From positions 41,202-105,201 of the forward strand of contig JBDTOT010000012.1 of assembly GCA_039933105.1 (NCBI GenBank): a stretch of 64,000 bases of DNA, read 5' to 3'. The position numbers and the translations under genes were made by a program. This document shows positions 2,407 through 35,160 of this stretch, piece after piece; the stretch's first letter is position 1; each line of letters opens with the position of its first letter. The stretch is from Gammaproteobacteria bacterium (GTDB lineage Bacteria; Pseudomonadota; Gammaproteobacteria; Steroidobacterales; Rariloculaceae). The notes under the pieces were generated by a model. That model was not told the DNA's origin. It made no database searches and saw only the letters and a program-made list of their open reading frames with translations.

Positions 2407-3329
2407 ACTCGAACACTTTGAAAATATTGATGGTCACCGCCTCGTGCGCCGTTGTTCTGGGCGGCTGCAAGTCGTCGCCGGAACGCGCAGCGGATGTCGA
2501 GCGCGCACGCGTTCAGGTCAATGCACTCGCACAGGCGCCGCAAGCGGAGCAAGCCGCGAGCCGCGATCTTGCGAACGCGCGAAATTCTCTGAAGCGTGCC
2601 GAAACAGCGCTCGACGATCGCAACGAAAGCGCCACGCATCACTTCGCCTACCTGGCCACGCAGCAAGCCAAGACGGGTCTTGCGCGCGTCGGCGAGTCGC
2701 GGGCGAAGGAGCAGGTCGCGCAGGCCGAAGCGGCGCGCGCTCGAGTTCTACTCGAGTCACGTGAGCGCGAGGCCGAGGCCGCTAAGGAAGTCGCTGTTGA
2801 ACAGTCGCAGCTGGCGGACGCTCGGGCCCGGCAAGCCGAGAGTGCTCGCGACGACGCACAGCAGGCGCAAGCGAATGCGGAGCGATCGCAGGCGGATGCT
2901 GCACGCGCACGTCAGGAGCTCGAGGACTTGAAAGCGAAACGAACGGAGCGCGGCATGGTGCTGACGCTGGGCGACGTGTTATTCGATACCGCTGCCTCTG
3001 CGGTCAAACCCGGCGGCATGAGTGTGCTCGATCGCGTGTCTGTGTTTCTCAAGGACCACGATCAAGTCAGGGTCATGGTGGAAGGACACACGGACAGCCG
3101 CGGCTCGGACGAATTCAACCAACATCTCTCCGAACAGCGCGCAGAAAGCGTCGCGCAGGCGCTCGAATCGCATGGCGTGGACGCCGATCGCGTGGAGACC
3201 ATAGGGCGTGGCGAATCCATGCCGATTGCGGGTAACGACACGGTCGCCGGCCAACAGCTGAACCGTCGCGTCGAGTTGGTGTTTTCGGACGCGTCTGGCC
3301 AGTTCGCAAGCCGTACGGCCGCTCGTTAA
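2403..3329 (+). CDS. OmpA-family peptidoglycan-binding lipoprotein with DUF4398-like N-terminus
   Basis: lipobox LGGC; LTLGDVLFD, VEGHTDSRGS, LSEQRAESV, NRRVE; ATGA overlap with upstream gene. Confidence 0.9.
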   Translation: MNSNTLKILMVTASCAVVLGGCKSSPERAADVERARVQVNALAQAPQAEQAASRDLANARNSLKRAETALDDRNESATHHFAYLATQQAKTGLARVGESRAKEQVAQAEAARARVLLESREREAEAAKEVAVEQSQLADARARQAESARDDAQQAQANAERSQADAARARQELEDLKAKRTERGMVLTLGDVLFDTAASAVKPGGMSVLDRVSVFLKDHDQVRVMVEGHTDSRGSDEFNQHLSEQRAESVAQALESHGVDADRVETIGRGESMPIAGNDTVAGQQLNRRVELVFSDASGQFASRTAAR

Positions 3330-3363
3330 CTTGACTCTCAATTAGTAAGCACAGGGGAATAGC

Positions 3364-3672
3364 ATGTCGACGATCAGTAAGGCAGTGAACAGTGGTGCCA
3401 ACGGGATGAACGGATTCTTCAACGACGTCGAAGAACTGCTGGGCCATATCACGCATCTGCCGGATGCCGAAATCGCGGAACTACGCCGGAAAGTCGAATC
3501 GTCGTTGGGCGCGGCGCGTGACGCCATGGAAGGCAGCGTCCAATCGGTCGTCGATACGACGACGCGAGCGGCGAAGGCCACGGACGACCTCGTGCAAAAC
3601 AATCCGTGGAAAGCGCTTGGCGTCGCGGCAGTCGCCTGCCTTGCTCTCGGTACGCTGCTGCGTAAACATTAG
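3364..3672 (+). CDS. DUF883/ElaB/YqjD-family membrane-anchored protein
   Basis: TDDLVQNNPWKALGVAA...LGTLL C-terminal signature. Confidence 0.85.
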   Translation: MSTISKAVNSGANGMNGFFNDVEELLGHITHLPDAEIAELRRKVESSLGAARDAMEGSVQSVVDTTTRAAKATDDLVQNNPWKALGVAAVACLALGTLLRKH

Positions 3673-3777: not shown

Positions 3778-4326
3778 ATGCGGAGAAACCTGGGTGTCTT
3801 TACGGCATGGCTCGCTGCCGCGCTGCTCGCCTTCGGCCTGCTGGCTCAACAACCCGTTCGCGCTGCCGACTTGGACTCGCTCGCGAAACGCGTGCAAGTG
3901 CTCGAGGACCGCGAGGCGATCCGCGCGCTGATCCTTGCGTACGGCCAGGCTCACGACCACCGGGACTACAAAACATTTGCGAGCCTGTTCGCGACGAACG
4001 GTGAATGGATCGGCGGCTTAGGCTCGGCGAAGGGTCCTGACGCCATTTTCGCGCTGATGGACAAGACCATCGGCCACCACCCGATGCCAAACGGCTCGGG
4101 CACGGTCCACTTGCTGACGAACGACCAGATCGTGATCGACGGCGATCAGGCGTCGGCGGTGACGAAGTGGATCTACATCACGCCCGGTGACGACAAGGCG
4201 CCGCAGCTGGTCTACGTCGGCCACTACGACGACAAGTTTGTCCGCGAGAAAGGCGCGTGGAAGTTTCTCCGCCGCGAGGCACCGGCGGATATTCCAATCC
4301 CCGAGGCAGCGGCACCGAAGAAATAG
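3778..4326 (+). CDS. SnoaL-like/NTF2-family protein with signal peptide
   Basis: LEDREAIRALILAYG, HLLTN, GHYDDKFVREKGAWKF; start placed at ATG 3778 after GGAG. Confidence 0.8.
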   Translation: MRRNLGVFTAWLAAALLAFGLLAQQPVRAADLDSLAKRVQVLEDREAIRALILAYGQAHDHRDYKTFASLFATNGEWIGGLGSAKGPDAIFALMDKTIGHHPMPNGSGTVHLLTNDQIVIDGDQASAVTKWIYITPGDDKAPQLVYVGHYDDKFVREKGAWKFLRREAPADIPIPEAAAPKK

Positions 4327-4342
4327 AACAAGGAGCACCCCC

Positions 4343-4798
4343 ATGAGCGCACCGCCCGTACTGACTGAGCTCAAACTCTCGGCAGAGATGAAAGACGCCA
4401 TCAACAAGGCGTTCGAAGTCCAGAAGCCGATTGTCGTCGCCTACGTCGACGAGAACCATTTGCCGCAGATTTCGTACCGCGGCAGCACGCAGGCCTACAG
4501 CGACAATCAGCTGGCGATCTGGGTCCGCAACCCGGAGGGGCGATTGCTCGAATCGATCGCACAAAACCCGGCTATGGCATTGATGTACGGCAACTTTGAC
4601 CCTGCCGGGCGAGCCTTCATGACGTTGCGCGGCCGCGGGCACGTCGACAGCAGCGAGACCGTGCGCGGGAAGGTATATGACAGCGCGCACCCGTTCGAAC
4701 GCGACAAGGACAAGGACCGCAAGGGCATCGCGATCGTCATCGATCTCGACAGCGTCGACGGCTTCTTCGGCGGCGCGATGCTGAAAATGCGCCGCTGA
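4343..4798 (+). CDS. Pyridoxamine 5'-phosphate oxidase-like FMN-binding protein
   Basis: AAGGAG RBS; VAYVDENHLPQISYRGS, LRGRGHV split-barrel motifs. Confidence 0.75.
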   Translation: MSAPPVLTELKLSAEMKDAINKAFEVQKPIVVAYVDENHLPQISYRGSTQAYSDNQLAIWVRNPEGRLLESIAQNPAMALMYGNFDPAGRAFMTLRGRGHVDSSETVRGKVYDSAHPFERDKDKDRKGIAIVIDLDSVDGFFGGAMLKMRR

Positions 4799-8792: not shown

Positions 8793-10418
8793 ATGGAGCA
8801 TCGAGTGAGAAGGATCCTGAGCGTCGCCGCGCTGCTATCGATGTGGATGCTGACGACGGCCGCGGCAGCGCTGGCCGGAGAGGAAGAGTTCACGCAGGCG
8901 ATCTCCGCCATCGCGACGGCCAGTTCGTATTCCGAGAAAGACGCTGCAGCCACCGCGATTGCCGCGAGCGCCAACCCACGGGCCGAGACGGTGCTCGGTG
9001 CGATGTTGAAAGGCGAGCTGTACACACGCAACAGCGACTCGCGCGTGGTCACGGTGACGGACGCGGCGGACGGATTCGCGGTGCTCGACGCGACAACGGG
9101 CGAGGACTTGGGCACCGCGAGCACCAGCGATGTGAGCCGAGTGACCGTCAACAACGCGCTGCGCACGTCGCTGCGCGGTCTGCTCGCGACGCTGAAACTG
9201 CACCACACAGATCCCAAACAACGCGTCGCCGCAATCCGCGAAGTCGGCGAGTCGGGAGATCTCGAGATGCGGCAGACGCTCACGGACCTCCTCGCGACAG
9301 AGCAAGACTCAGATGTGCGCGGGGCCATTGATACGGCGGTCGCGACCTTGAATCTCGATAGCACGGAGCCCGCCGAGCGCTTGGCCGCCATCGAGCGCGT
9401 GGGCGGCGTCGTCAACGGCCTCACGCGCACGAAGATGTCGGCGCTGGCCGCCAACGAAAGCGTCGACGAGGAGACGAGGACGGCCGCGCGCAGAGCGTTG
9501 ATCGACATCGAGCGACGCGTCGCCGTGTACGACGTCGTGCAAACGGCGTTCTTCGGCCTGAGCCTGGGCTCTATCCTCGTGCTCGCCGCCATTGGCCTGT
9601 CGGTGACGTTCGGCATCATGGGCGTCATCAACATGGCGCACGGCGAGCTCATGATGCTCGGCGCCTATACCACTTACGTCGTACAACAGCTGATGCCGAA
9701 TGCGCTCGGCGCGTCGCTGTTCGTCGCCATGCCCGCGGCGTTCCTGGTCGCCGGGCTCGTGGGAGTCGCGATCGAGCGCGGCATAGTCCGCAGACTCTAC
9801 GGCCGGCCGCTCGAGACCCTGCTCGCGACGTTCGGCGTGAGCCTCGTGCTCCAACAGGCCGTTCGCACGATCTTCTCGCCGTTGAACCGCTCGGTCGTCA
9901 CACCGGCTTGGCTCAGCGGCTCAATCGAGCTCACACCCGGGCTCGACATCACGCTGAACCGGCTCTACATCCTGCTGTTCAGTCTGCTCGTGTTCGGCGC
10001 GTTGCTGCTCGTGCTGAAACGCACGCGGCTGGGTCTCGAGATGCGCGCGGTGACGCAGAACCGCGCGATGGCCGCGGCGATGGGCATTCGCACCGACCGC
10101 GTGGACATGCTCACGTTCGGGCTCGGCGCCGGCATCGCCGGGCTCGCGGGCGTGGCGCTGTCGCAGGTCACTAACGTGGGCCCGAATCTCGGCCAGGCGT
10201 ACATCGTCGACTCGTTCATGGTCGTGGTGTTCGGCGGCGTGGGCAATCTGTGGGGCACTCTCGTGAGCGGGCTTTCGCTCGGCGTCGCGAGCAAGCTGAT
10301 CGAACCCGCAGCGGGCGCGGTCATGGCGAAGATCTTCGTGCTGGTGTTCTTGATCGTGTTCATCCAGAAGCGACCGCGCGGGCTGTTCCCGCAGAAAGGT
10401 CGCGCGGCGGAAGCATGA
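8793..10418 (+). CDS. urtB: Urea ABC transporter permease with N-terminal periplasmic helical extension
   Basis: FGIMGVINMAHGE, LYGRPLETLLATFG, IVDSFMVVVFGGVG, RPRGLFPQKGR. Confidence 0.93.
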   Translation: MEHRVRRILSVAALLSMWMLTTAAAALAGEEEFTQAISAIATASSYSEKDAAATAIAASANPRAETVLGAMLKGELYTRNSDSRVVTVTDAADGFAVLDATTGEDLGTASTSDVSRVTVNNALRTSLRGLLATLKLHHTDPKQRVAAIREVGESGDLEMRQTLTDLLATEQDSDVRGAIDTAVATLNLDSTEPAERLAAIERVGGVVNGLTRTKMSALAANESVDEETRTAARRALIDIERRVAVYDVVQTAFFGLSLGSILVLAAIGLSVTFGIMGVINMAHGELMMLGAYTTYVVQQLMPNALGASLFVAMPAAFLVAGLVGVAIERGIVRRLYGRPLETLLATFGVSLVLQQAVRTIFSPLNRSVVTPAWLSGSIELTPGLDITLNRLYILLFSLLVFGALLLVLKRTRLGLEMRAVTQNRAMAAAMGIRTDRVDMLTFGLGAGIAGLAGVALSQVTNVGPNLGQAYIVDSFMVVVFGGVGNLWGTLVSGLSLGVASKLIEPAAGAVMAKIFVLVFLIVFIQKRPRGLFPQKGRAAEA

Positions 10419-11515
10419 GCATGCTCACGAAACGCTGGCCCGATCACGATCGCGGCGGCTACGTGCTACTCGGCGTTCTGGCTGTGCTCGCCGTCGTGGT
10501 GCCCGTCGCGAATCTCGCGATCCCCGACGGCTCGCCCCTGCATCTGTCGACGTTCATGGTCACGCTGCTCGGCAAGTACCTGTGCTACGCACTGCTCGCG
10601 CTGGCGCTCGATCTCGTGTGGGGTTACGTCGGCATCCTGAGCTTGGGCCACGGCGCGTTCTTCGCACTCGGCGGCTATGCCATGGGCATGTATCTGATGC
10701 GCCAGATCGGCGCGCGCGGCGTGTACGGCAACGCAGATCTGCCGGACTTCATGGTGTTTCTGAACTGGGACACGCTGCCGTGGTACTGGCACGGCTTCGA
10801 CACGTTCTGGTTCGCGCTGGCGATGGTCGTGCTCGTGCCGGGGTTGCTCGCCTTCGTGTTCGGTTGGCTCGCGTTCCGTTCGCGTGTCGCGGGCGTGTAT
10901 CTGTCGATCATCACGCAGGCGCTCACGTACGCGCTGATGCTCGCGTTCTTCCGCAACGAGATGGGCTTCGGCGGCAACAACGGACTCACGGACTTCAAGG
11001 AGCTACTCGGCTTCGATCTGCAGAGCGACAAAACGCGCGTCGCGCTGTTCCTCACATCCACCGCCGCGCTCGCACTCGGCTACCTCGCGTGCCGTTACGT
11101 CGTAACGTCGCGGCTCGGCCGAGTGGTCGCCGCGATCCGCGACGCCGAGGACCGGGTGCGGTTCGTCGGCTTCCGCACGCATCACTTCAAGGTGTGGGTC
11201 TTCACGCTGTCGGCCGTGCTGTGCGGCATCGCGGGCGCTTTGTACGTTCCGCAGGTCGGCATCATCAACCCCAATGAGTTCCAGCCGCTGAATTCGATCG
11301 AGCTCGTCGTGTGGGTCGCGGTCGGCGGCCGCGGCACGCTGTACGGGGCGGCGCTCGGCGCCGCCGTCGTGAACTACGCGAAGTCCACGTTCACGGCGCT
11401 GCTGCCGGAGGTGTGGCTGTTTGTGCTCGGGACATTGTTCGTGCTCGTGACGATCGCCCTCCCGCGTGGGCTCGTCGGAATCGCCGCTCGCTTCAAGAGA
11501 TCTCAGCATGCTTGA
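10415..11515 (+). CDS. urtC: Urea ABC transporter permease
   Basis: LDLVWGYVGILSLGHG, LPDFMVFL, GFGGNNGLTDFK; ATGA overlap with urtB. Confidence 0.93.
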   Translation: MSMLTKRWPDHDRGGYVLLGVLAVLAVVVPVANLAIPDGSPLHLSTFMVTLLGKYLCYALLALALDLVWGYVGILSLGHGAFFALGGYAMGMYLMRQIGARGVYGNADLPDFMVFLNWDTLPWYWHGFDTFWFALAMVVLVPGLLAFVFGWLAFRSRVAGVYLSIITQALTYALMLAFFRNEMGFGGNNGLTDFKELLGFDLQSDKTRVALFLTSTAALALGYLACRYVVTSRLGRVVAAIRDAEDRVRFVGFRTHHFKVWVFTLSAVLCGIAGALYVPQVGIINPNEFQPLNSIELVVWVAVGGRGTLYGAALGAAVVNYAKSTFTALLPEVWLFVLGTLFVLVTIALPRGLVGIAARFKRSQHA

Positions 11516-12317
11516 GTCCGGCCCGCACGACGCCGAAGACTGGGCACGCGACGACCCGCTGCCGGGCGGAATTGATGCGCCGCACAAGTGGATCTTGTAC
11601 CTCGACAAGATTTCCGTGAGCTTCGACGGCTTCCGCGCGCTGAACAACCTGAACCTCTACATCGAGCGCGGGGAGCTGCGCTGCGTGATCGGCCCGAACG
11701 GCGCCGGCAAGACTACGATGATGGACGTGATCACGGGCAAGACGCGCCCAGACGAAGGCGAAGCTTTCTTCGACGGCTCGATCGATCTGCTGCAGCACTC
11801 GGAGCCCGAGATCGCGAGCTGGATCGGCCGCAAGTTTCAGAAACCGACGGTGTTCGTGAATCACACGGTCCTCGAGAACCTCGAGCTCGCGGGGCTGCAC
11901 GACAAGCGCGTGTGGCACACGCTCATCACGAAACTGTCTGCCCAGGACAGGTACCGCATCGACGCGACGCTGCGGACGATCGGTCTGCTCGATCGCGCGA
12001 CGCGGCCGGCGGGCGCGTTGTCGCACGGCCAGAAGCAGTGGCTTGAGATCGGCATGCTGCTGATGCAGAACCCGCGCGTGCTGCTCGTGGACGAGCCGGT
12101 CGCCGGTATGACGCGCCATGAGACCGAAGCGACGGCGGAGCTGCTGAATGGGCTCGCGGGCGAGCACTCAGTGGTGGTCGTCGAGCACGACATGGAGTTC
12201 GTGCGCTCGATCGCGCGGCGCGTGACAGTGCTGCACGAAGGTCACGTGCTGGCCGAGGGGCCGATGGACGTTATTCAGAACGATCCCAAAGTCATCGAGG
12301 TGTACCTTGGCGAGTGA
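11508..12317 (+). CDS. urtD: Urea ABC transporter ATP-binding protein
   Basis: GPNGAGKT, IGRKFQKP, LSHGQKQWLEIGM, VIEVYLG. Confidence 0.93.
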   Translation: MLESGPHDAEDWARDDPLPGGIDAPHKWILYLDKISVSFDGFRALNNLNLYIERGELRCVIGPNGAGKTTMMDVITGKTRPDEGEAFFDGSIDLLQHSEPEIASWIGRKFQKPTVFVNHTVLENLELAGLHDKRVWHTLITKLSAQDRYRIDATLRTIGLLDRATRPAGALSHGQKQWLEIGMLLMQNPRVLLVDEPVAGMTRHETEATAELLNGLAGEHSVVVVEHDMEFVRSIARRVTVLHEGHVLAEGPMDVIQNDPKVIEVYLGE

Positions 12318-12541
12318 TCGTTCACCGCTCGGCACCGCGTTGTGCCGCACAGTCGGCGTCCCGCGCGCATCGATCGCCAGCATGCGAGGGCTGTTTCGAA
12401 ACCGCCGCAAGTACATCCCTGTAGGCTCGCGCCGCGCCGTCCCTGGCGCGGAGCGTTTCGAAACAGCCCTCGCATGCCGACGATCGATGATTATGCACAG
12501 CGCGTGTGCGGCGCACGTGGCACAGCACAGCGAGCGATCAC
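12314..12541. repeat. Long palindromic element, copy 1
   Basis: perfect 23-bp inverted arms 12380-12402/12455-12477 around a 52-nt core (12403-12454); further imperfect pairing out to 12314-12323/12532-12541. Confidence 0.9.
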
Positions 12542-12749
12542 GCCTGCGGTTGGATGTGGACAACGGCGGCGCGGGCACGACCTTCGATGTCGGCCGTTGG
12601 CGTGAGATGACCGTTTCGGAGCGCTCCGCGCCAGGGACGGCGCGGCGCGAGCCTACAGGGACGTACCTGCGGCGTTTCCGAAACGGTCATCTCACGCCGA
12701 CGGCCGACTGCGATGCCATCAACCCCGCGCCGATGGGAGCCACCGCGTG
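12539..12749. repeat. Long palindromic element, copy 2 (core inverted relative to copy 1)
   Basis: 31/32-bp inverted arms 12589-12620/12677-12708; core 12623-12674 is the reverse complement of the copy-1 core at 50/52 positions. Confidence 0.9.
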
Positions 12750-13460
12750 CTGACGGTGAAGGGATTGAATCAGTCGTATGGGCAGAGCCACACGCTGTGG
12801 GACATCGAGCTCGACGTGCCGCGCGGGGCGGTCGTGAGCCTCATCGGGCGCAACGGGGTCGGTAAGACCACGCTGCTCGGGTGTCTCATGGGGTTGCTCA
12901 AGACGGACTCCGGCAGCATTACGTTCGACGGGCGCGAGCTTGCCGGCTCGCGTGCCGAGCAACGCGCACCACTCGGCATCGGTTTCGTGCCGCAGGGCCG
13001 CATGATCTTTCCGCTGCTCACCGTGGAAGAGAACCTGCGCATCGGTTTACCCGCTCGCGCAAAGCGTGCGCCAAAAACGGCAACCCACGCGGTCGTGCCC
13101 GACCTCGTCTATGAGCTGTTCCCCGTGTTGAAGTCGATGCGCAGACGCCGCGGCGGCGACCTTTCGGGCGGCCAGCAACAGCAACTCGCGATCGGCCGCG
13201 CGCTCGTGCTGAACCCGAGCCTGCTGATTTTGGACGAGCCCACCGAAGGCATTCAGCCCAGCATCGTCAAGGAAATCGGCGACGTGATTCAGCGCTTGAA
13301 GCACGAGCTCGCCATGACCGTGCTCGTAGTGGAGCAGAAGCTACCGTTCGTGCGCCGCGTGTGCGACCGATTCTGCATCATGGACAAAGGCCGGGTCGTC
13401 GGCACGGGCGCCATGCCCGAACTCACCGACGATCTCGTGCGTAACTTTCTCTCCGTGTGA
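12747..13460 (+). CDS. urtE: Urea ABC transporter ATP-binding protein
   Basis: GRNGVGKT, VPQGRMIFPLLTVEENL, LSGGQQQQLAIGRAL, DEPTEGIQPS; GTG start with GGAG RBS. Confidence 0.93.
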   Translation: MLTVKGLNQSYGQSHTLWDIELDVPRGAVVSLIGRNGVGKTTLLGCLMGLLKTDSGSITFDGRELAGSRAEQRAPLGIGFVPQGRMIFPLLTVEENLRIGLPARAKRAPKTATHAVVPDLVYELFPVLKSMRRRRGGDLSGGQQQQLAIGRALVLNPSLLILDEPTEGIQPSIVKEIGDVIQRLKHELAMTVLVVEQKLPFVRRVCDRFCIMDKGRVVGTGAMPELTDDLVRNFLSV

Positions 13461-32376: not shown

Positions 32377-35160
32377 TCATCTCGAGCGCCGTATCGATTC
32401 ACGCACCGCCAACTTTTCCGTCGCAACCGCCAAACTAGTAACTCTAAGCGCTTCGTTAGCGGCCATCGAATCGAGCAGCAGGCTCTCGGACTCCGCCAGC
32501 AAAATCGGCAATTCAGCAGCAATCCGAGTCATGGTCGACGGCAACTGCTCTGGCGCGACTGCCTTGGAGAGGAGGTAGCCTTGCAAATAAATGGGTCGAT
32601 GACCAAGCAGGATTATGAGCTGTTCGGGCCGCTCGATTCCCTCGGCCGTCACTTCAAGTTTGAGGCCATGACACAGGCCGATAATGGCGCGGGCAATCGC
32701 AGCAGAGCGCGGACTCTGATCGATGTCCGAAATCAAACTGCGGTCGATCTTGATTCTTGTGAACGGCAACTGTTCGAGGGATGCCAGCGAAGAATATCCG
32801 GCCCCGAAATCATCCAGAGCGACGGCAATGCCGCATTCACGCAGTTTATGAAGTGCGTCGATGGTCGCCGGGCCCGTCTGTAGAACCGTTTCGGTCAGTT
32901 CTATTTCAAGACACCGCGCCGGTAACGCAAATTCGCGCAGAAGCGCTTGGACCTTGTCCACGAAGTGATGGTCCAGCAATTGTCGTGCTGACACATTGAC
33001 GGCGACACGAGCACCGGGCCAGATGCCTTGCTGCCACCTAGCGGCCGTTTCTATGGCCGAGCGCAAAACCCAATCGCTTATCTCCACGATCAAGCCGGAT
33101 TCCTCGGCGACAGCCAGAAACTCACCGGGCGCGGCAAGGCTGCCGTCGGGTAGACGCCAGCGAATTAACGCCTCAACGAGCGACACTTGTTGGGTCTCCG
33201 AACTGACCTCCGGCTGGAAAGCCAATTCAAACTCACCACGTTCCACGGCGCGGCGCAGACCTTGCTCGGTTGTGAATTTTGCGGCGGCCGAGGCTAGCAA
33301 TTCAGGCGTAAACACCGAGAGCTGGCTGCGTCCCAAAGCCTTCGCCCGGAATAGCGCCGCGTCGGCAGCCTGCAACAAGCCTTCTGCGGTCAGCTCGTGG
33401 TCGGGATAGATGCTAGCGCCCGCGCTAATACTCACAATAAGATCCCGACCATCAATTGAGATTGGATTTTGGAAGGCAGTAATCAGACTCAAGCCGACGT
33501 TGCGGACATGGTCAAGATCTCGCCCCTTGGTCAGTACCACGGTGAACTCATCTCCGCCCAGACGAGCGGCGAAACCGAACTCCGCCGCGATCTCGCGCAA
33601 ACGTTGCGAGACGGCGCGTAGTAACCGGTCGCCGAACCCGTGACCCATCGAATCGTTGACGTTTTTGAAATTATCCAGATCCAAAAAGAACACGCCGACC
33701 AAGCGCTTTTCACGCGCCGCGTTTTGCAGCGTCCCCTCAAGCAGTGCGAGCAGATGTCTACGATTGGGAAGGCCAGTCAAAGGGTCGCATTCCGCTAGCT
33801 CTTGAAGCTGACGCGTCCGTTCAAGAACCCGCGCTTCAAGGTCGCGCTGGTGTTGTTCTGCGCTCTTTCTTGATCCGATCAGCTCTTCTGCCATTTCATT
33901 AAATGACGAGGCGAGCGTGTCGAGCTCCTTGATTCCGCCACCCGGCACGACATCACAAGCTACGCCGCGTTTGAGCTGCGCCATTGCCTTCAACAAACGA
34001 CGAATCGGGACCACAATGCTGCGCACGGTCCCAATCGAAATCACCAGCACGATCATTAGAATGCCGCCGGACAACAGCGCCACAAGGTTGCGTTTGGACG
34101 CATCAACATCGGAATTTGAGAGAGTTGTGCGCACCTCTGGGGCGACACTCTCGACGATCTCGGCAATCCCATCGATGGGTGGCCCGACGAAGGGCGCCTC
34201 CTGCGTGATCGCCATCGGAGCCGCGTTAGCGGACGCGCTTCCCAGCGTTTGCTGAAGGCGTGCGCGGATCTGTTCACCGCTTTGGAAGAACCCCTGCTCC
34301 GCCTCGTCCCTCCCTTTCCAGTCCGCAATCAGATGCTCACGCAACGCGCGGATTTGGCCGAGGTCTTCGCGAATTATTCCGACCCATTCAGCGCCTTCTG
34401 AGCGTGTAAGTGCGCGCTCGTTCGTTTCGAGCGTCTGACCAAAGGCGTCTTCACTGGCGATCAGCGAATCCGCTGCGGATGAATTGAAGGCAGCGTCCCC
34501 AATAAGAATGCCGAATCGACGCCGAAGCTCATCGTGATCGGTTCGCAGCTGCAGCAAAGACTGTCGGGCGAGCACGCGGCCGAGGATCTTCCACCCTTTC
34601 CCCACCGCCTCAGCCATCCGGTCGCTCATCTCGTCGAGACGCGCCGCGTATTTACGAACAGTGGTCCGCTTATCGTCCGCCAGAGTCGTCAATTTCTGAG
34701 CGGCTGCGCCATAAGCCTTAAGAGACTTACGCAGGCCTTGCTGGGCGTCCTTGTCGAGATTTTCAGAGTAAACCGTTGCTTCGGATTCGAGAGCACGCTG
34801 CGCGGCTCCCAGCTTTTTATCGTTTTCTGCACTAGGCGTTTGCACGCGAGCAGCGATGGCGCGCTCGTAGCGGCCGACGTTCTCTGTGAGCTGAGAAATG
34901 AGAGCGTCGGGCGTGGGCTCCGACGCTGGAATTGCCGCGGCATCCGCCTGCGGAGCGCTTACGGCAGTCGGCGCGGAACGAAACCGGGTGATTTCGATGG
35001 TCGATACGCCGCGCTCCACCATCACATTTGTGATCGCGGCGAGAATCCCGACCGCAGCAAAAGAAAGTGCCAGGCGACCCGTGATGCCTATGCGGGCGAC
35101 TAACGGTCGTCGCAGGGTCTTAAGCAGTGTGGCCGCCGTCCGCTGAACCCAGATATTCAT
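32377..35160 (-). CDS. Membrane HAMP-GGDEF-EAL diguanylate cyclase/phosphodiesterase
   Basis: two TMs, HAMP, DPLTGLPNR, RLGGDEF, VEALIRW, DDFGAGYSSL, EGIE. Confidence 0.92.
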   Translation of the reverse strand: MNIWVQRTAATLLKTLRRPLVARIGITGRLALSFAAVGILAAITNVMVERGVSTIEITRFRSAPTAVSAPQADAAAIPASEPTPDALISQLTENVGRYERAIAARVQTPSAENDKKLGAAQRALESEATVYSENLDKDAQQGLRKSLKAYGAAAQKLTTLADDKRTTVRKYAARLDEMSDRMAEAVGKGWKILGRVLARQSLLQLRTDHDELRRRFGILIGDAAFNSSAADSLIASEDAFGQTLETNERALTRSEGAEWVGIIREDLGQIRALREHLIADWKGRDEAEQGFFQSGEQIRARLQQTLGSASANAAPMAITQEAPFVGPPIDGIAEIVESVAPEVRTTLSNSDVDASKRNLVALLSGGILMIVLVISIGTVRSIVVPIRRLLKAMAQLKRGVACDVVPGGGIKELDTLASSFNEMAEELIGSRKSAEQHQRDLEARVLERTRQLQELAECDPLTGLPNRRHLLALLEGTLQNAAREKRLVGVFFLDLDNFKNVNDSMGHGFGDRLLRAVSQRLREIAAEFGFAARLGGDEFTVVLTKGRDLDHVRNVGLSLITAFQNPISIDGRDLIVSISAGASIYPDHELTAEGLLQAADAALFRAKALGRSQLSVFTPELLASAAAKFTTEQGLRRAVERGEFELAFQPEVSSETQQVSLVEALIRWRLPDGSLAAPGEFLAVAEESGLIVEISDWVLRSAIETAARWQQGIWPGARVAVNVSARQLLDHHFVDKVQALLREFALPARCLEIELTETVLQTGPATIDALHKLRECGIAVALDDFGAGYSSLASLEQLPFTRIKIDRSLISDIDQSPRSAAIARAIIGLCHGLKLEVTAEGIERPEQLIILLGHRPIYLQGYLLSKAVAPEQLPSTMTRIAAELPILLAESESLLLDSMAANEALRVTSLAVATEKLAVRESIRRSR

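Follow-up and report, generated by a model that had tools for sequence, protein, structure and literature searches.

The 429-nt gap between urtD and urtE is probably best read as a divergent doublet of a mobile non-coding repeat of the YPAL/RU-2 family, in which the conserved tip of each unit would be a putative docking site for CsrA and the long stem would be kept by templated copying. The gap lies in the window, i.e., the whole stretch of 64,000 nt of contig JBDTOT010000012.1 that was analysed, and the source genome (hereafter G000, 95% complete) was compared with 22 other genomes of its genus.

Organization of the urtD-urtE Region

The predicted layout was confirmed: two inverted 52-nt cores (12403-12454 on the plus strand and 12623-12674 on the minus strand), identical at 50 of 52 positions by blastn, occupy the gap, and each sits on a near-perfect stem of more than 30 bp. 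A repeat search gave 35-nt arms with 94% complementarity for hairpin 1 (12368-12402/12455-12489) and 37-nt arms with 92% complementarity for hairpin 2 (12584-12620/12677-12713), and both hairpins stood far apart from shuffled sequences (fold z -11.2 to -12.3; 0/200 shuffles as good). The features of the region are as follows.

11466-12317, plus strand: urtD, ATP-binding protein of the urea ABC transporter (TIGR03411, 372.8 bits; cut-off 304.1)
12313-12367, no strand: native flank A, 3' of urtD, homologous to the empty-site genomes G001 and G020; pairs with 12490-12548
12368-12489, minus strand: repeat unit 1 (core 12403-12454); the minus strand gives the best fold, with GGA loops
12412-12423, minus strand: GGA-loop hairpin of unit 1, plus TACATCCCTGTA, minus UACAGGGAUGUA; fits positions 2-12 of the CsrA SELEX consensus
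12438-12445, minus strand: second GGA loop of unit 1, minus CAGGGACG, on a 7-bp G+C stem with stem covariation
12490-12548, no strand: spacer part A', a diverged inverted copy (by alignment) of native urtD-downstream DNA; outer right side of hairpin 1
12549-12583, no strand: spacer part B', showing weak complementarity to the native flank 5' of urtE, with a 9-nt exact match CCCGCGCCG
12584-12713, plus strand: repeat unit 2 (core 12623-12674); its GGA sense is the urt mRNA strand
12632-12639, plus strand: GGA loop of the G+C hairpin of unit 2, CAGGGACG
12654-12665, plus strand: UACAGGGACGUA hairpin of unit 2; fits the CsrA SELEX consensus
12747-13460, plus strand: urtE, ATP-binding subunit of the urea ABC transporter, starting at GTG (TIGR03410, 315 bits; cut-off 285.8)

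The urtE start lies 34 nt 3' of unit 2. A 148-aa ORF that spans the gap has no NCBIfam match, and no transposase was found inside or adjoining either unit. For unit 1 the predicted minimum free energy is -94.1 kcal/mol on the minus strand vs. -82.2 on the plus strand (difference 11.9), and for unit 2 it is -101.5 kcal/mol on the plus strand vs. -97.8 on the minus strand (difference 3.7). The units were matched by CM at G000:C12:53590-53669(-) (unit 1, CM R1, 76.2 bits) and C12:53810-53889(+) (unit 2, 71.8 bits).

The arms had been described as unrelated between the copies, and this held only in part. None of the seven arms tested in G000 matches anything other than itself and its partner, and capture of arms from elsewhere in the genome was rejected on this ground; copies 1 and 2, on the other side, share a 118-nt inverted repeat with 81% complementarity, and their right arms are 75% identical over 32 nt, which places the two copies in one subfamily. 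Moreover, paralogues in other genomes do share arms. Arm identity reaches 0.39-0.52 at positions 2-4 and 8 vs. about 0.3 elsewhere, a weak gradient from the core. Position profiles around the copies contain no conserved flanking motif or promoter, and the similarities found among flanks are those of orthologues, partners or neighbouring Stenotrophomonas palindromes.

Affiliation with YPAL/RU-2 and Ysr224

YPAL/RU-2 repeats were reportedly described in Yersinia by De Gregorio and colleagues in 2006. As judged from alignment, the urt repeats belong to this family, which is catalogued in part as Rfam Ysr224 (RF02770). The original prediction could name no described family; the urt core matches both YPAL/RU-2 and Ysr224, and because the element is already catalogued, the locus adds a family member and not a new kind of repeat. 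The Rfam Ysr224 consensus aligns to both urt copies with 38.7 and 29.6 bits (E 1.9e-7 and 7.8e-5), scores that lie below the gathering score of 70 bits, which was reached by only 1 of 18 loci scanned, the enterobacterial one: an Acerihabitans copy with the same 17-nt pattern (81.1 bits). In addition, the 168-nt RU-2 sequence of Y. pestis, as printed in Table 1b of Delihas 2007 (PMC2759123), has a GGA-loop G+C hairpin followed by CGAGCCUACAUGGAUGUAUUUACGGCGU, which equals the consensus of our alignment A1 in a comparison made by eye, with no scored alignment.

Like YPAL/RU-2, the urt-type repeats are multi-copy, intergenic, palindromic and G+C-rich, have internal inverted repeats and predicted long stem-loop transcripts, and occupy sites that are filled or empty among close relatives; co-transcription with the upstream gene is a further trait of YPAL/RU-2. 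Dyad symmetry at insertion sites may be a further likeness: passages in the Delihas review (PMC2229807) place YPAL insertions at or adjoining dyad symmetry, with a target site duplication of variable length (3-26 bp). Ysr224 is multi-copy and temperature-responsive according to passages in PMC9029176 and PMC12112432. The units studied here differ from YPAL/RU-2 in length (122-130 nt vs. about 168 nt), in arms that are unrelated to the Yersinia arms, and in their host, an uncultured gammaproteobacterial genus far from Enterobacterales; the Ysr224 model, furthermore, describes the UCCC strand, opposite to the GGA strand. The literature searched contained no paper joining YPAL with CsrA, none joining CsrA, repetitive extragenic palindromic elements and GGA, and for the core string only unrelated primer matches.

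Distribution and Copy Number

As the original prediction had anticipated, the core is not confined to this locus. About 20 copies are present in G000 (20 CM matches, second subfamily included), a search with the 17-nt pattern of the core was positive for 17 of the 22 further members of the genus and for none of 18 genomes from other genera, and CM R1 detected the core in 34 of the 150 additional families that were sampled from the class. At least 120 contigs from many gammaproteobacterial orders carry it. Cultured carriers include Yersinia, Stenotrophomonas, Marinobacter, Halopseudomonas and Microbulbifer. Copy number within the genus ranges from 0 to 32, the richest genomes being G009 (32 copies) and G020 (28 copies). 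When two elements lie close together, 28 of 31 pairs are divergent in the GGA sense and none has the opposite arrangement; the urt pair is spaced 239 nt, motif to motif.

The core was not matched in the plasmid collection searched. In E. coli, to which the element is not native, a core match was found in only 5 of 5426 genomes, and the four plasmid-borne copies there represent one segment, the inspected one of which lies within an IS26-bounded stretch.

Insertion and Probable Templated Growth of the Stem

In the empty-site alignment that had been proposed for the urtD-urtE junction, only G000 and G016 have the site filled, and seven relatives (G001, G020, G006, G017, G019, G022 and G004) have it empty; given these empty junctions the urt pair is an insertion. 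At a further locus (C27), a 190-nt insertion with both arms inside is present in G000 only and absent from G016 and G020; the inner arms of 25-40 nt travel with the element. No inverted flank copy was seen at C27, and candidate target duplications at the urt and C27 junctions are only 2-3 nt long.

Outside the inner arms, the stem has another source. The outer left side of the extended hairpin 1 stem is formed, in both the fold and the alignment, by the urtD stop codon and the DNA 3' of it. The reverse complement of 12490-12552 matches the urtD-downstream flank of the empty-site genome G001 at 31 of 37 columns (0/5000 shuffles as good), whereas the direct-orientation control for A' against the flank was not significant (1137/5000 shuffles as good). 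In G016, A' matches that genome's own, different flank (19/22; no shuffle as good). These alignments demonstrate that native urtD-downstream DNA was copied, in inverted form, into the outer stem, so that the predicted manufacture of arms from local DNA holds for the outer stem and is not supported for the inner arms, which arrive with the element. The pairing that had been noted to decay out to about 100 nt is likewise real on the urtD side. On the urtE side, the match of spacer part B' to the upstream flank is weak (86/2000 shuffles as good). The dyad symmetry at the urt site seems to have been made by the inverted copying of the flank. At locus C46, five arm differences separate G000 from G001; every one has its mirror change in the partner arm, and pairing is perfect in both stems; the C46 empty site of G009 has diverged beyond the placing of insertion boundaries.

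An outer stem copied from the native flank and co-evolving with it provides direct evidence for templated palindrome growth, which bears on the origin of such repeats and of doublets with fixed orientation. Of 131 elements, only 16 had pairing beyond the arms that lay above the 99th control percentile. Doublets were considered as possibly richer in such outer pairing than solitary elements, and this was rejected (8/41 vs. 25/121 above the 99th percentile of controls).

Folded Strand and Conserved Tip

When the stem mismatches of 94 arm clusters are read on the GGA strand, G·U outnumbers A·C by 113 to 8 (p 7e-25) and G·A outnumbers C·U by 44 to 4. These one-sided mismatches indicate that the strand constrained by folding is the GGA strand, opposite to the one modelled in Rfam. 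Replication-linked mutation bias was rejected as a cause of the asymmetry, the GC skew of the flanks being positive in 75 cases and negative in 59. Together with consensus pairs, 21 of 26 of which show both-sided changes that preserve pairing, the one-sided mismatches bear out the predicted selection of arms for pairing. The idea of a structured RNA and non-autonomous repeat, in which the core is conserved and the self-complementary arms vary, is supported.

The tip is the conserved part. The invariant block of alignment A1 is AGCCUACAGGGANGUA; in a second subfamily the UAC/GUA stem is swapped for GC/GC and the AGGGAU loop is kept. Common loop variants, for example AUCCAUG, have lost the CCC run and kept UCC (GGA in the complementary strand).

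Resemblance to CsrA Sites

Passages in PMC4347634 give the CsrA SELEX consensus as RUACARGGAUGU, with ACA and GGA invariant and the GGA in a hairpin loop. The GGA strand of the repeat carries UACAGGGAUGUA, which matches this consensus, and a second CANGGANG loop, which was absent from the search pattern and is found in 86 of 107 elements; at least two GGA occur in 106 of the 107 cores, and exactly two in 87. The conserved tip looks like a CsrA binding site, and elements whose GGA strand presents two loops that fit the consensus occur in roughly one in four of the families sampled from the class. The csrA gene is present in G000 and in 33 of 34 element-bearing sampled families vs. 97 of 116 element-free ones, a weak co-occurrence given that almost the whole class has csrA (131/151). 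Conserved positions outside the GGA loops (GUAYUYRCGGCGU and CGAGCC) are unexplained by CsrA binding.

With a crude ORF caller, the elements showed no sense bias relative to neighbouring genes (++ 26 vs. -- 25), a bias that would be expected of a strictly cis-acting RNA; 29 of 134 elements overlap an ORF called in this way, and 38 of the 109 elements with both neighbours called lie in convergent intergenic regions. An intrinsic terminator was also considered and rejected: no terminator-like or promoter-like site occurs in 12200-12850, and T-runs (at least four within 15 nt) follow few hairpins, 3/154 in the GGA sense and 14/154 in the opposite sense. If CsrA does bind, mobile docking sites for this global regulator would number in the dozens and would lie in intercistronic and 3' regions, one of them 34 nt 5' of the urtE start, where it might affect urtE.

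Proposed Model and Alternative Explanations

We propose that each unit is transcribed within neighbouring mRNAs and that its GGA strand forms a long hairpin as RNA; at the tip, two short hairpins would meet the stem in a three-way junction. As both loops carry GGA in the context preferred by CsrA/RsmA, the tip would most likely offer two docking sites to a single CsrA dimer, and the long stem, of arbitrary sequence, would hold it in shape in any context. The unit may spread as arm-core-arm; after insertion, templated copying by hairpin-primed synthesis or template switching would keep the two sides of the stem alike and could run on into the native flank, lengthening the stem with local DNA.

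A selfish DNA palindrome of the MITE or REP kind, with the tip as a recognition site, on single-stranded DNA of one strand, for a host or element enzyme that copies it, an incidental likeness to CsrA sites and a functionless RNA, is a possible but rather doubtful alternative. It would fit the variation from 0 to 32 copies in one genus, the filled and empty sites, the lack of orientation bias relative to genes, the doublets of fixed relative orientation (28/31 close pairs, none opposite) and the conservation outside the GGA loops. The most stable mismatches in single-stranded DNA include G·T, G·A and G·G, so a DNA hairpin of the GGA strand would give an equal mismatch asymmetry. Against it, no transposase lies in or adjoining the units, the presence of Y1_Tnp does not track copy number, the two most conserved loops fit the 12-nt and 8-nt consensus of an RNA regulator present in nearly all carriers, and the loops are kept while stems covary between subfamilies. 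A REP/REPIN element mobilised by a RAYT (HUH) transposase that would recognise GTAG and the G+C hairpin on the UCCC strand is highly improbable. In copy 1, read on the plus strand, GTAG does stand directly 5' of the G+C hairpin, and head-to-head dimers predominate in the GTAG and CGTC REP families, according to passages in PMC3733652; yet the HUH/RAYT idea of the original prediction did not survive, as Y1_Tnp is absent from the 95% complete G000 and present in only 6 of 23 genus genomes, including G002 and G006 with zero copies and excluding the richest, G009 and G020, the units are 120-170 nt long vs. 20-40 nt, and the folded strand is the opposite one.

Other readings concern the RNA. It is quite unlikely that the repeats are structural mRNA elements only, i.e., RNase III sites, 3'-end stabilisers or intercistronic insulators, with a tip conserved since the copies are recent. 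Such roles have been described for REP/BIME and proposed for YPAL, and both the perfect RNA stems of 30-45 bp and the preference for gene ends, seen in the convergent intergenic regions, would agree with them; however, the tip is conserved across orders with unrelated stems, which argues that its conservation is not merely recent, T-runs are rare after the hairpins, and a structural role is compatible with CsrA docking and does not exclude it. We give almost no credence to an anti-Shine-Dalgarno sRNA with UCCC loops that pair with ribosome-binding sites. The two UCCC-containing loops and the Rfam Ysr224 model on the UCCC strand would speak for it, but that strand gives A·C 113 vs. G·U 8 and C·U 44 vs. 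G·A 4, contrary to the mismatches that a folded RNA can accommodate, and loop variants such as AUCCAUG dispense with the CCC run.

As to how the repeat with its putative CsrA-docking tip moves, it might spread without a transposase, by break repair that copies GGA-sense RNA or single-stranded DNA, a speculative scheme that we regard as unlikely. Where both strands are broken, the GGA-sense molecule would serve as template for each 3' end, which would make a UCCC-sense copy on its own strand and fold back on the new hairpin; synthesis would continue along the end's own flank, and the ends would then be joined. The scheme would yield close pairs that are always divergent, an inverted copy of the urtD flank at the start of the spacer and arm differences from copy to copy, and captured flank, trimmed and carried into the next round, would produce arm variation. 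If true, a binding module of a global regulator would propagate via the repair machinery of the host.

Comparison with Other Repeat and RNA Systems

Like REP/BIME and REPIN elements, the repeats lie between genes, form head-to-head dimers, have GTAG adjoining a G+C hairpin and may influence mRNA stability; they differ in the lack of RAYT association and in their much longer units. In REPINs the pattern of arm and tip is the reverse of the conserved tip and variable arms seen here. With CsrB/RsmY/RsmZ they share GGA in hairpin loops that fit the CsrA consensus and a gammaproteobacterial range; unlike these RNAs, they have two sites per unit and no promoter or terminator of their own found in 12200-12850, and they are dispersed, mobile and multi-copy, whereas CsrB/RsmY/RsmZ are encoded by one or a few dedicated genes.

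The TwoAYGGAY RNA motif (Rfam RF01731), as presented in excerpts of Weinberg 2010 (PMC2864571), Gardner and Eldai 2015 (PMC4333381) and the Minerva preprint (10.64898/2026.09.22.753630), is similar in architecture and behaviour, a likeness that does not itself show homology. RF01731 gave no match in 11800-13300 at E up to 10 and none at the gathering score in 18 loci, and the first loop here is ARGGAY. Both have two hairpins with A-N-GGA-Y or AYGGAY-type loops on a common basal stem, and the excerpts on TwoAYGGAY also include proposed CsrA binding and extreme copy-number variation. Its doublets in Pseudomonas are given there as 68.4% divergent with a median spacing of 249 bp, compared with 28/31 divergent close pairs and the 239 nt of the urt pair in the present repeats.

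The urtD–urtE doublet

The 429-nt gap between urtD and urtE holds two inverted 52-nt cores (50/52 identical) flanked by arms of 35 nt and 37 nt with near-perfect complementarity, and shuffled versions gave far weaker folds than either hairpin (z −11 to −12). The original observation of two inverted cores on long stems was thus borne out, and the doublet is a real, well-formed feature. A 148-aa ORF across the gap had no match among the NCBIfam models.

Genes and repeat units around the urtD–urtE gap
10250-11515, urtC (NCBIfam equivalog model)
11466-12317, urtD (NCBIfam equivalog model)
12368-12489, minus strand, repeat unit 1
12584-12713, plus strand, repeat unit 2
12747-13460, urtE (NCBIfam equivalog model)

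The arms of the two copies had been considered unrelated, which does not hold: the right arms are 75% identical across 32 nt, and the two copies form an inverted repeat of 118 nt at 81%.

No promoter-like or terminator-like site was found in the gap, and the doublet is therefore probably part of the urt mRNA; a role of the repeat as a terminator was rejected. The mRNA would carry unit 2 in the GGA sense (the strand with GGA-bearing tip loops; its complement is the UCCC strand) and unit 1 in antisense. Unit 2 ends 34 nt upstream of the urtE start, and the two cores are able to pair mutually in the whole-gap fold. An effect on urtE may run through the RNA regulator CsrA, through RNase III or through a blocked ribosome-binding site.

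Family identity and distribution

The only meaningful Rfam match of the urt copies was Ysr224 (RF02770), whose consensus has the core in common with them; the scores of 38.7 and 29.6 bits fall short of the gathering score (70). Matches to plant miRNA precursors were dismissed, since such models favour long hairpins. The gathering score was passed by one of the 18 loci scanned, an enterobacterial copy (Acerihabitans, 81.1 bits). Ysr224 is the Rfam entry for the Yersinia repeat family YPAL/RU-2, and by-eye comparison found the same core block in the 168-nt RU-2 unit of Y. pestis as printed in Table 1b of Delihas 2007 (PMC2759123). The urt doublet is therefore a new but distant addition to a repeat family that had already been described. 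Excerpts of the Delihas review (PMC2229807) describe YPAL/RU-2 elements as abundant, intergenic, not A+T-rich and recently mobile, with internal inverted repeats, target duplications of 3-26 bp, targets at or adjoining dyad symmetry and a possible influence on upstream transcript stability. Other reports (PMC9029176, PMC12112432) list Ysr224 itself as temperature-responsive and rank it with the multi-copy sRNA annotations of highest abundance.

Searches with blastn and R1, a covariance model built from 75 diverse copies, gave 20 matches in the source genome, G000 (95% complete). Several copies lie at contig ends, where the assembly is broken. Contigs end inside the core at C52:28816-28842 with C15:1-50, C1:1-66, C43:1-66, C70:1-73 and C62:6-87, and therefore the repeat breaks assembly; the arms (37 nt, three transition mismatches) show that the C52 end and the C15 start belong to a single unit split in two. 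Of the 22 other genus members surveyed, 17 genomes carried a 17-nt core pattern (at most one mismatch), at 1-32 copies each; 0 of 18 genomes representing other genera within the family and order had it. The exact pattern occurred in at least 120 contigs from many gammaproteobacterial groups, the matches listed including Stenotrophomonas, Marinobacter, Halopseudomonas, Microbulbifer, Methylocucumis, Ectothiorhodospira, Steroidobacteraceae, Alloalcanivorax, Oceanisphaera and Acerihabitans. When 150 other families of the class were sampled, R1 found the repeat in 34 (a sample that includes two genomes flagged unpublished, G077 and G155, both element-negative and used only in this and the csrA tally). 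These counts contradict the view of the core as a local inverted duplication restricted to this site. Among 159 distinct copies collected, 134 had arms of at least 14 nt, with a median arm of 29 nt and a median core of 53 nt.

In E. coli, the repeat was matched in 5 of 5426 genomes, and the four plasmid copies are the same segment, the one inspected being IS26-bounded; a native E. coli origin was rejected accordingly. On plasmid NZ_CP058751.1, a single copy (34768-34839) lies directly downstream of an alcohol dehydrogenase gene, in a segment that also holds a threonine ammonia-lyase gene. IS26 and further IS remnants border this segment, which probably represents chromosomal DNA captured from a different gammaproteobacterium.

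Two subfamilies coexist in G000. The second swaps the UAC/GUA stem of the first hairpin for GC/GC, keeps the AGGGAU loop and has a more conserved inner 14-nt arm of the GCCCCTCGCGGGAC type; two of its copies form a further divergent doublet.

Second-subfamily copies in G000
C7:99469-99550
C62:6-87
C15:218-299
C14:34224-34305
C66:224-305
C77:14346-14426
C15:49316-49397
C1:54411-54492, minus strand, doublet
C1:54609-54690, plus strand, doublet
C43:1-66
C70:1-73

Doublet architecture and gene context

Among 31 close pairs in the collected loci (cores at most 700 nt apart), 28 were "+ then −" on the UCCC strand, that is, divergent in the GGA sense, with two "++", one "−−" and none "− then +". Nine pairs had been included because the genus survey showed them as close; 19 of the 22 not chosen for closeness were divergent. 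Spacing in the urt doublet is 239 nt, motif to motif. The same doublet behaviour, with divergent pairs prevailing, is reported in Pseudomonas for the motif TwoAYGGAY (RF01731), for which excerpts of a 2026 preprint (10.64898/2026.09.22.753630) give 68.4% divergent doublets, a median spacing of 249 bp, wide copy-number variation and an expansion termed "mobile-element-like". As the RF01731 model had no match in the window sequence at the urt gap, the urt repeat is classed as like TwoAYGGAY in architecture and behaviour, not as a member.

Two "+ ... −" arrangements enclose ORFs: units 1455 nt apart (L046:2311-3782) surround two small ORFs (2432-2767, 2777-3466) with, by eye, a HigB/HigA-type toxin-antitoxin look, and units 643 nt apart (L112:3893-4552) surround a 141-aa ORF (3998-4423) that looks OsmC-like by eye. 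Orientation relative to neighbouring genes showed no sense bias (++ 26, −− 25, convergent 38, divergent 20), a rough test, since 29 of 134 elements were overlapped by an ORF from the crude caller. At three Stenotrophomonas loci (L039, L076, L128), units adjoin unrelated palindromes of the GTAG...ATCCACGCCATGCGTGGAT type, presumably akin to Stenotrophomonas GTAG repeats; different repeat families cluster in the same intergenic regions there.

The folded strand and the tip

Stem mismatches are strongly asymmetric: on the UCCC strand, 144 were A·C versus 13 G·T over 3771 pairs. With the 131 elements collapsed into 94 arm clusters, A·C outnumbered G·T by 113 to 8 (p 7e-25), with at least one A·C in 67 clusters and at least one G·T in seven, C·T 44 versus A·G 4, and C·C 11 versus G·G 1. 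Their GGA-strand equivalents are G·U, G·A and G·G, which folded RNA tolerates best among mismatches, and for each of the two window copies the GGA-sense fold is the more stable one (differences of 11.9 and 3.7 kcal/mol). The Ysr224 model lies on the UCCC strand, opposite to the strand under folding constraint here. Replication-linked mutation bias fails to explain the asymmetry, because flank GC skew (75 versus 59) revealed no orientation bias of the elements; as a rival reading, the asymmetry would equally arise if the GGA strand formed its hairpin as single-stranded DNA rather than as RNA.

In the GGA-strand consensus, a long stem ends in a three-way junction from which two hairpins project, and 21 of 26 consensus pairs changed on both sides with pairing kept. 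AGCCUACAGGGANGUA is the sole invariant block of the whole unit. Among 107 well-formed copies, the second hairpin, which no search pattern included, bears CANGGANG in 86, a fit to the 8-mer consensus from work on RsmE; at least two GGA occur in the core of 106. The AGCCUACAGGGANGUA block fits positions 2-12 of the CsrA SELEX consensus RUACARGGAUGU, in which, as excerpted from a review (PMC4347634), ACA and GGA are invariant and GGA lies in a hairpin loop. The tip may therefore bind CsrA. This docking reading is plausible and was partly anticipated in print for the look-alike TwoAYGGAY, for which two-hairpin docking has been proposed (excerpt of PMC4333381); no paper in the literature searched has YPAL and CsrA together. 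G000 has csrA, as do 33 of the 34 element-bearing sampled families versus 97 of the 116 others, a weak and phylogenetically confounded difference.

Insertion and origin of the arms

The urtD–urtE junction is filled in G000 and its congener G016. It is empty in G001, G020 and G006, in which the block is missing and 63-86 nt lie unaligned between the genes, and the two genes are ~30 nt apart in G017, G019, G022 and G004. Mobilisation by HUH/RAYT enzymes, one of the original suggestions, found no support: no Y1_Tnp was found in G000, and its presence in 6 of 23 genus genomes was unrelated to repeat copy number, so that a RAYT link was rejected.

It had also been proposed that the arms are made from local DNA, which holds for the outer stem and fails for the inner arms. 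The latter travel with the core, because at the C27 locus, where convergent genes abut in G016 and G020, the 190 extra nt of G000 include both arms. Paralogues with common arms occur in G004, Methylocucumis and a Cellvibrionaceae MAG; each of seven arms tested in G000 matched only itself and its own partner.

It is the outer urt stem that yields the locus's most original result. In reverse complement, 12490-12552 matches native DNA after the G001 urtD stop codon (31 identities in 37 columns; 0/5000 shuffles as good), the direct-orientation control against that flank being not significant; against G000's own, more drifted flank, 203/5000 shuffles were as good. The G016 spacer piece matches G016's own, different flank (19/22; 0/3000 shuffles as good) and not that of G000 (642/3000 as good), which argues that the two stem sides keep being copied from each other in each lineage. 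These alignments show the outer stem to be flank-derived and co-evolving. In the orthologous C46 hairpin, all five arm differences between G000 and G001 are mirrored in the partner arm (5/5), each stem being perfect. Of 131 elements, 16 had complementarity outside the detected arms above the 99th percentile for mismatched controls, and such outer complementarity was no commoner in doublets (8/41) than in solos (25/121).

No inverted flank copy was seen at the C27 locus. Its G010 orthologue (L215, G010:C18:17573-17673) holds a degenerate unit remnant in the opposite orientation, a core piece with CCGGGAC-type arms, and repeated insertion or remodelling apparently took place at this intergenic site. 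In the G016 orthologue of the C46 locus (L226, on C8), a 6-nt tandem duplication (TGGGTC) is present in one arm and missing from the partner arm and from the three other species, an example of an uncorrected stem indel.
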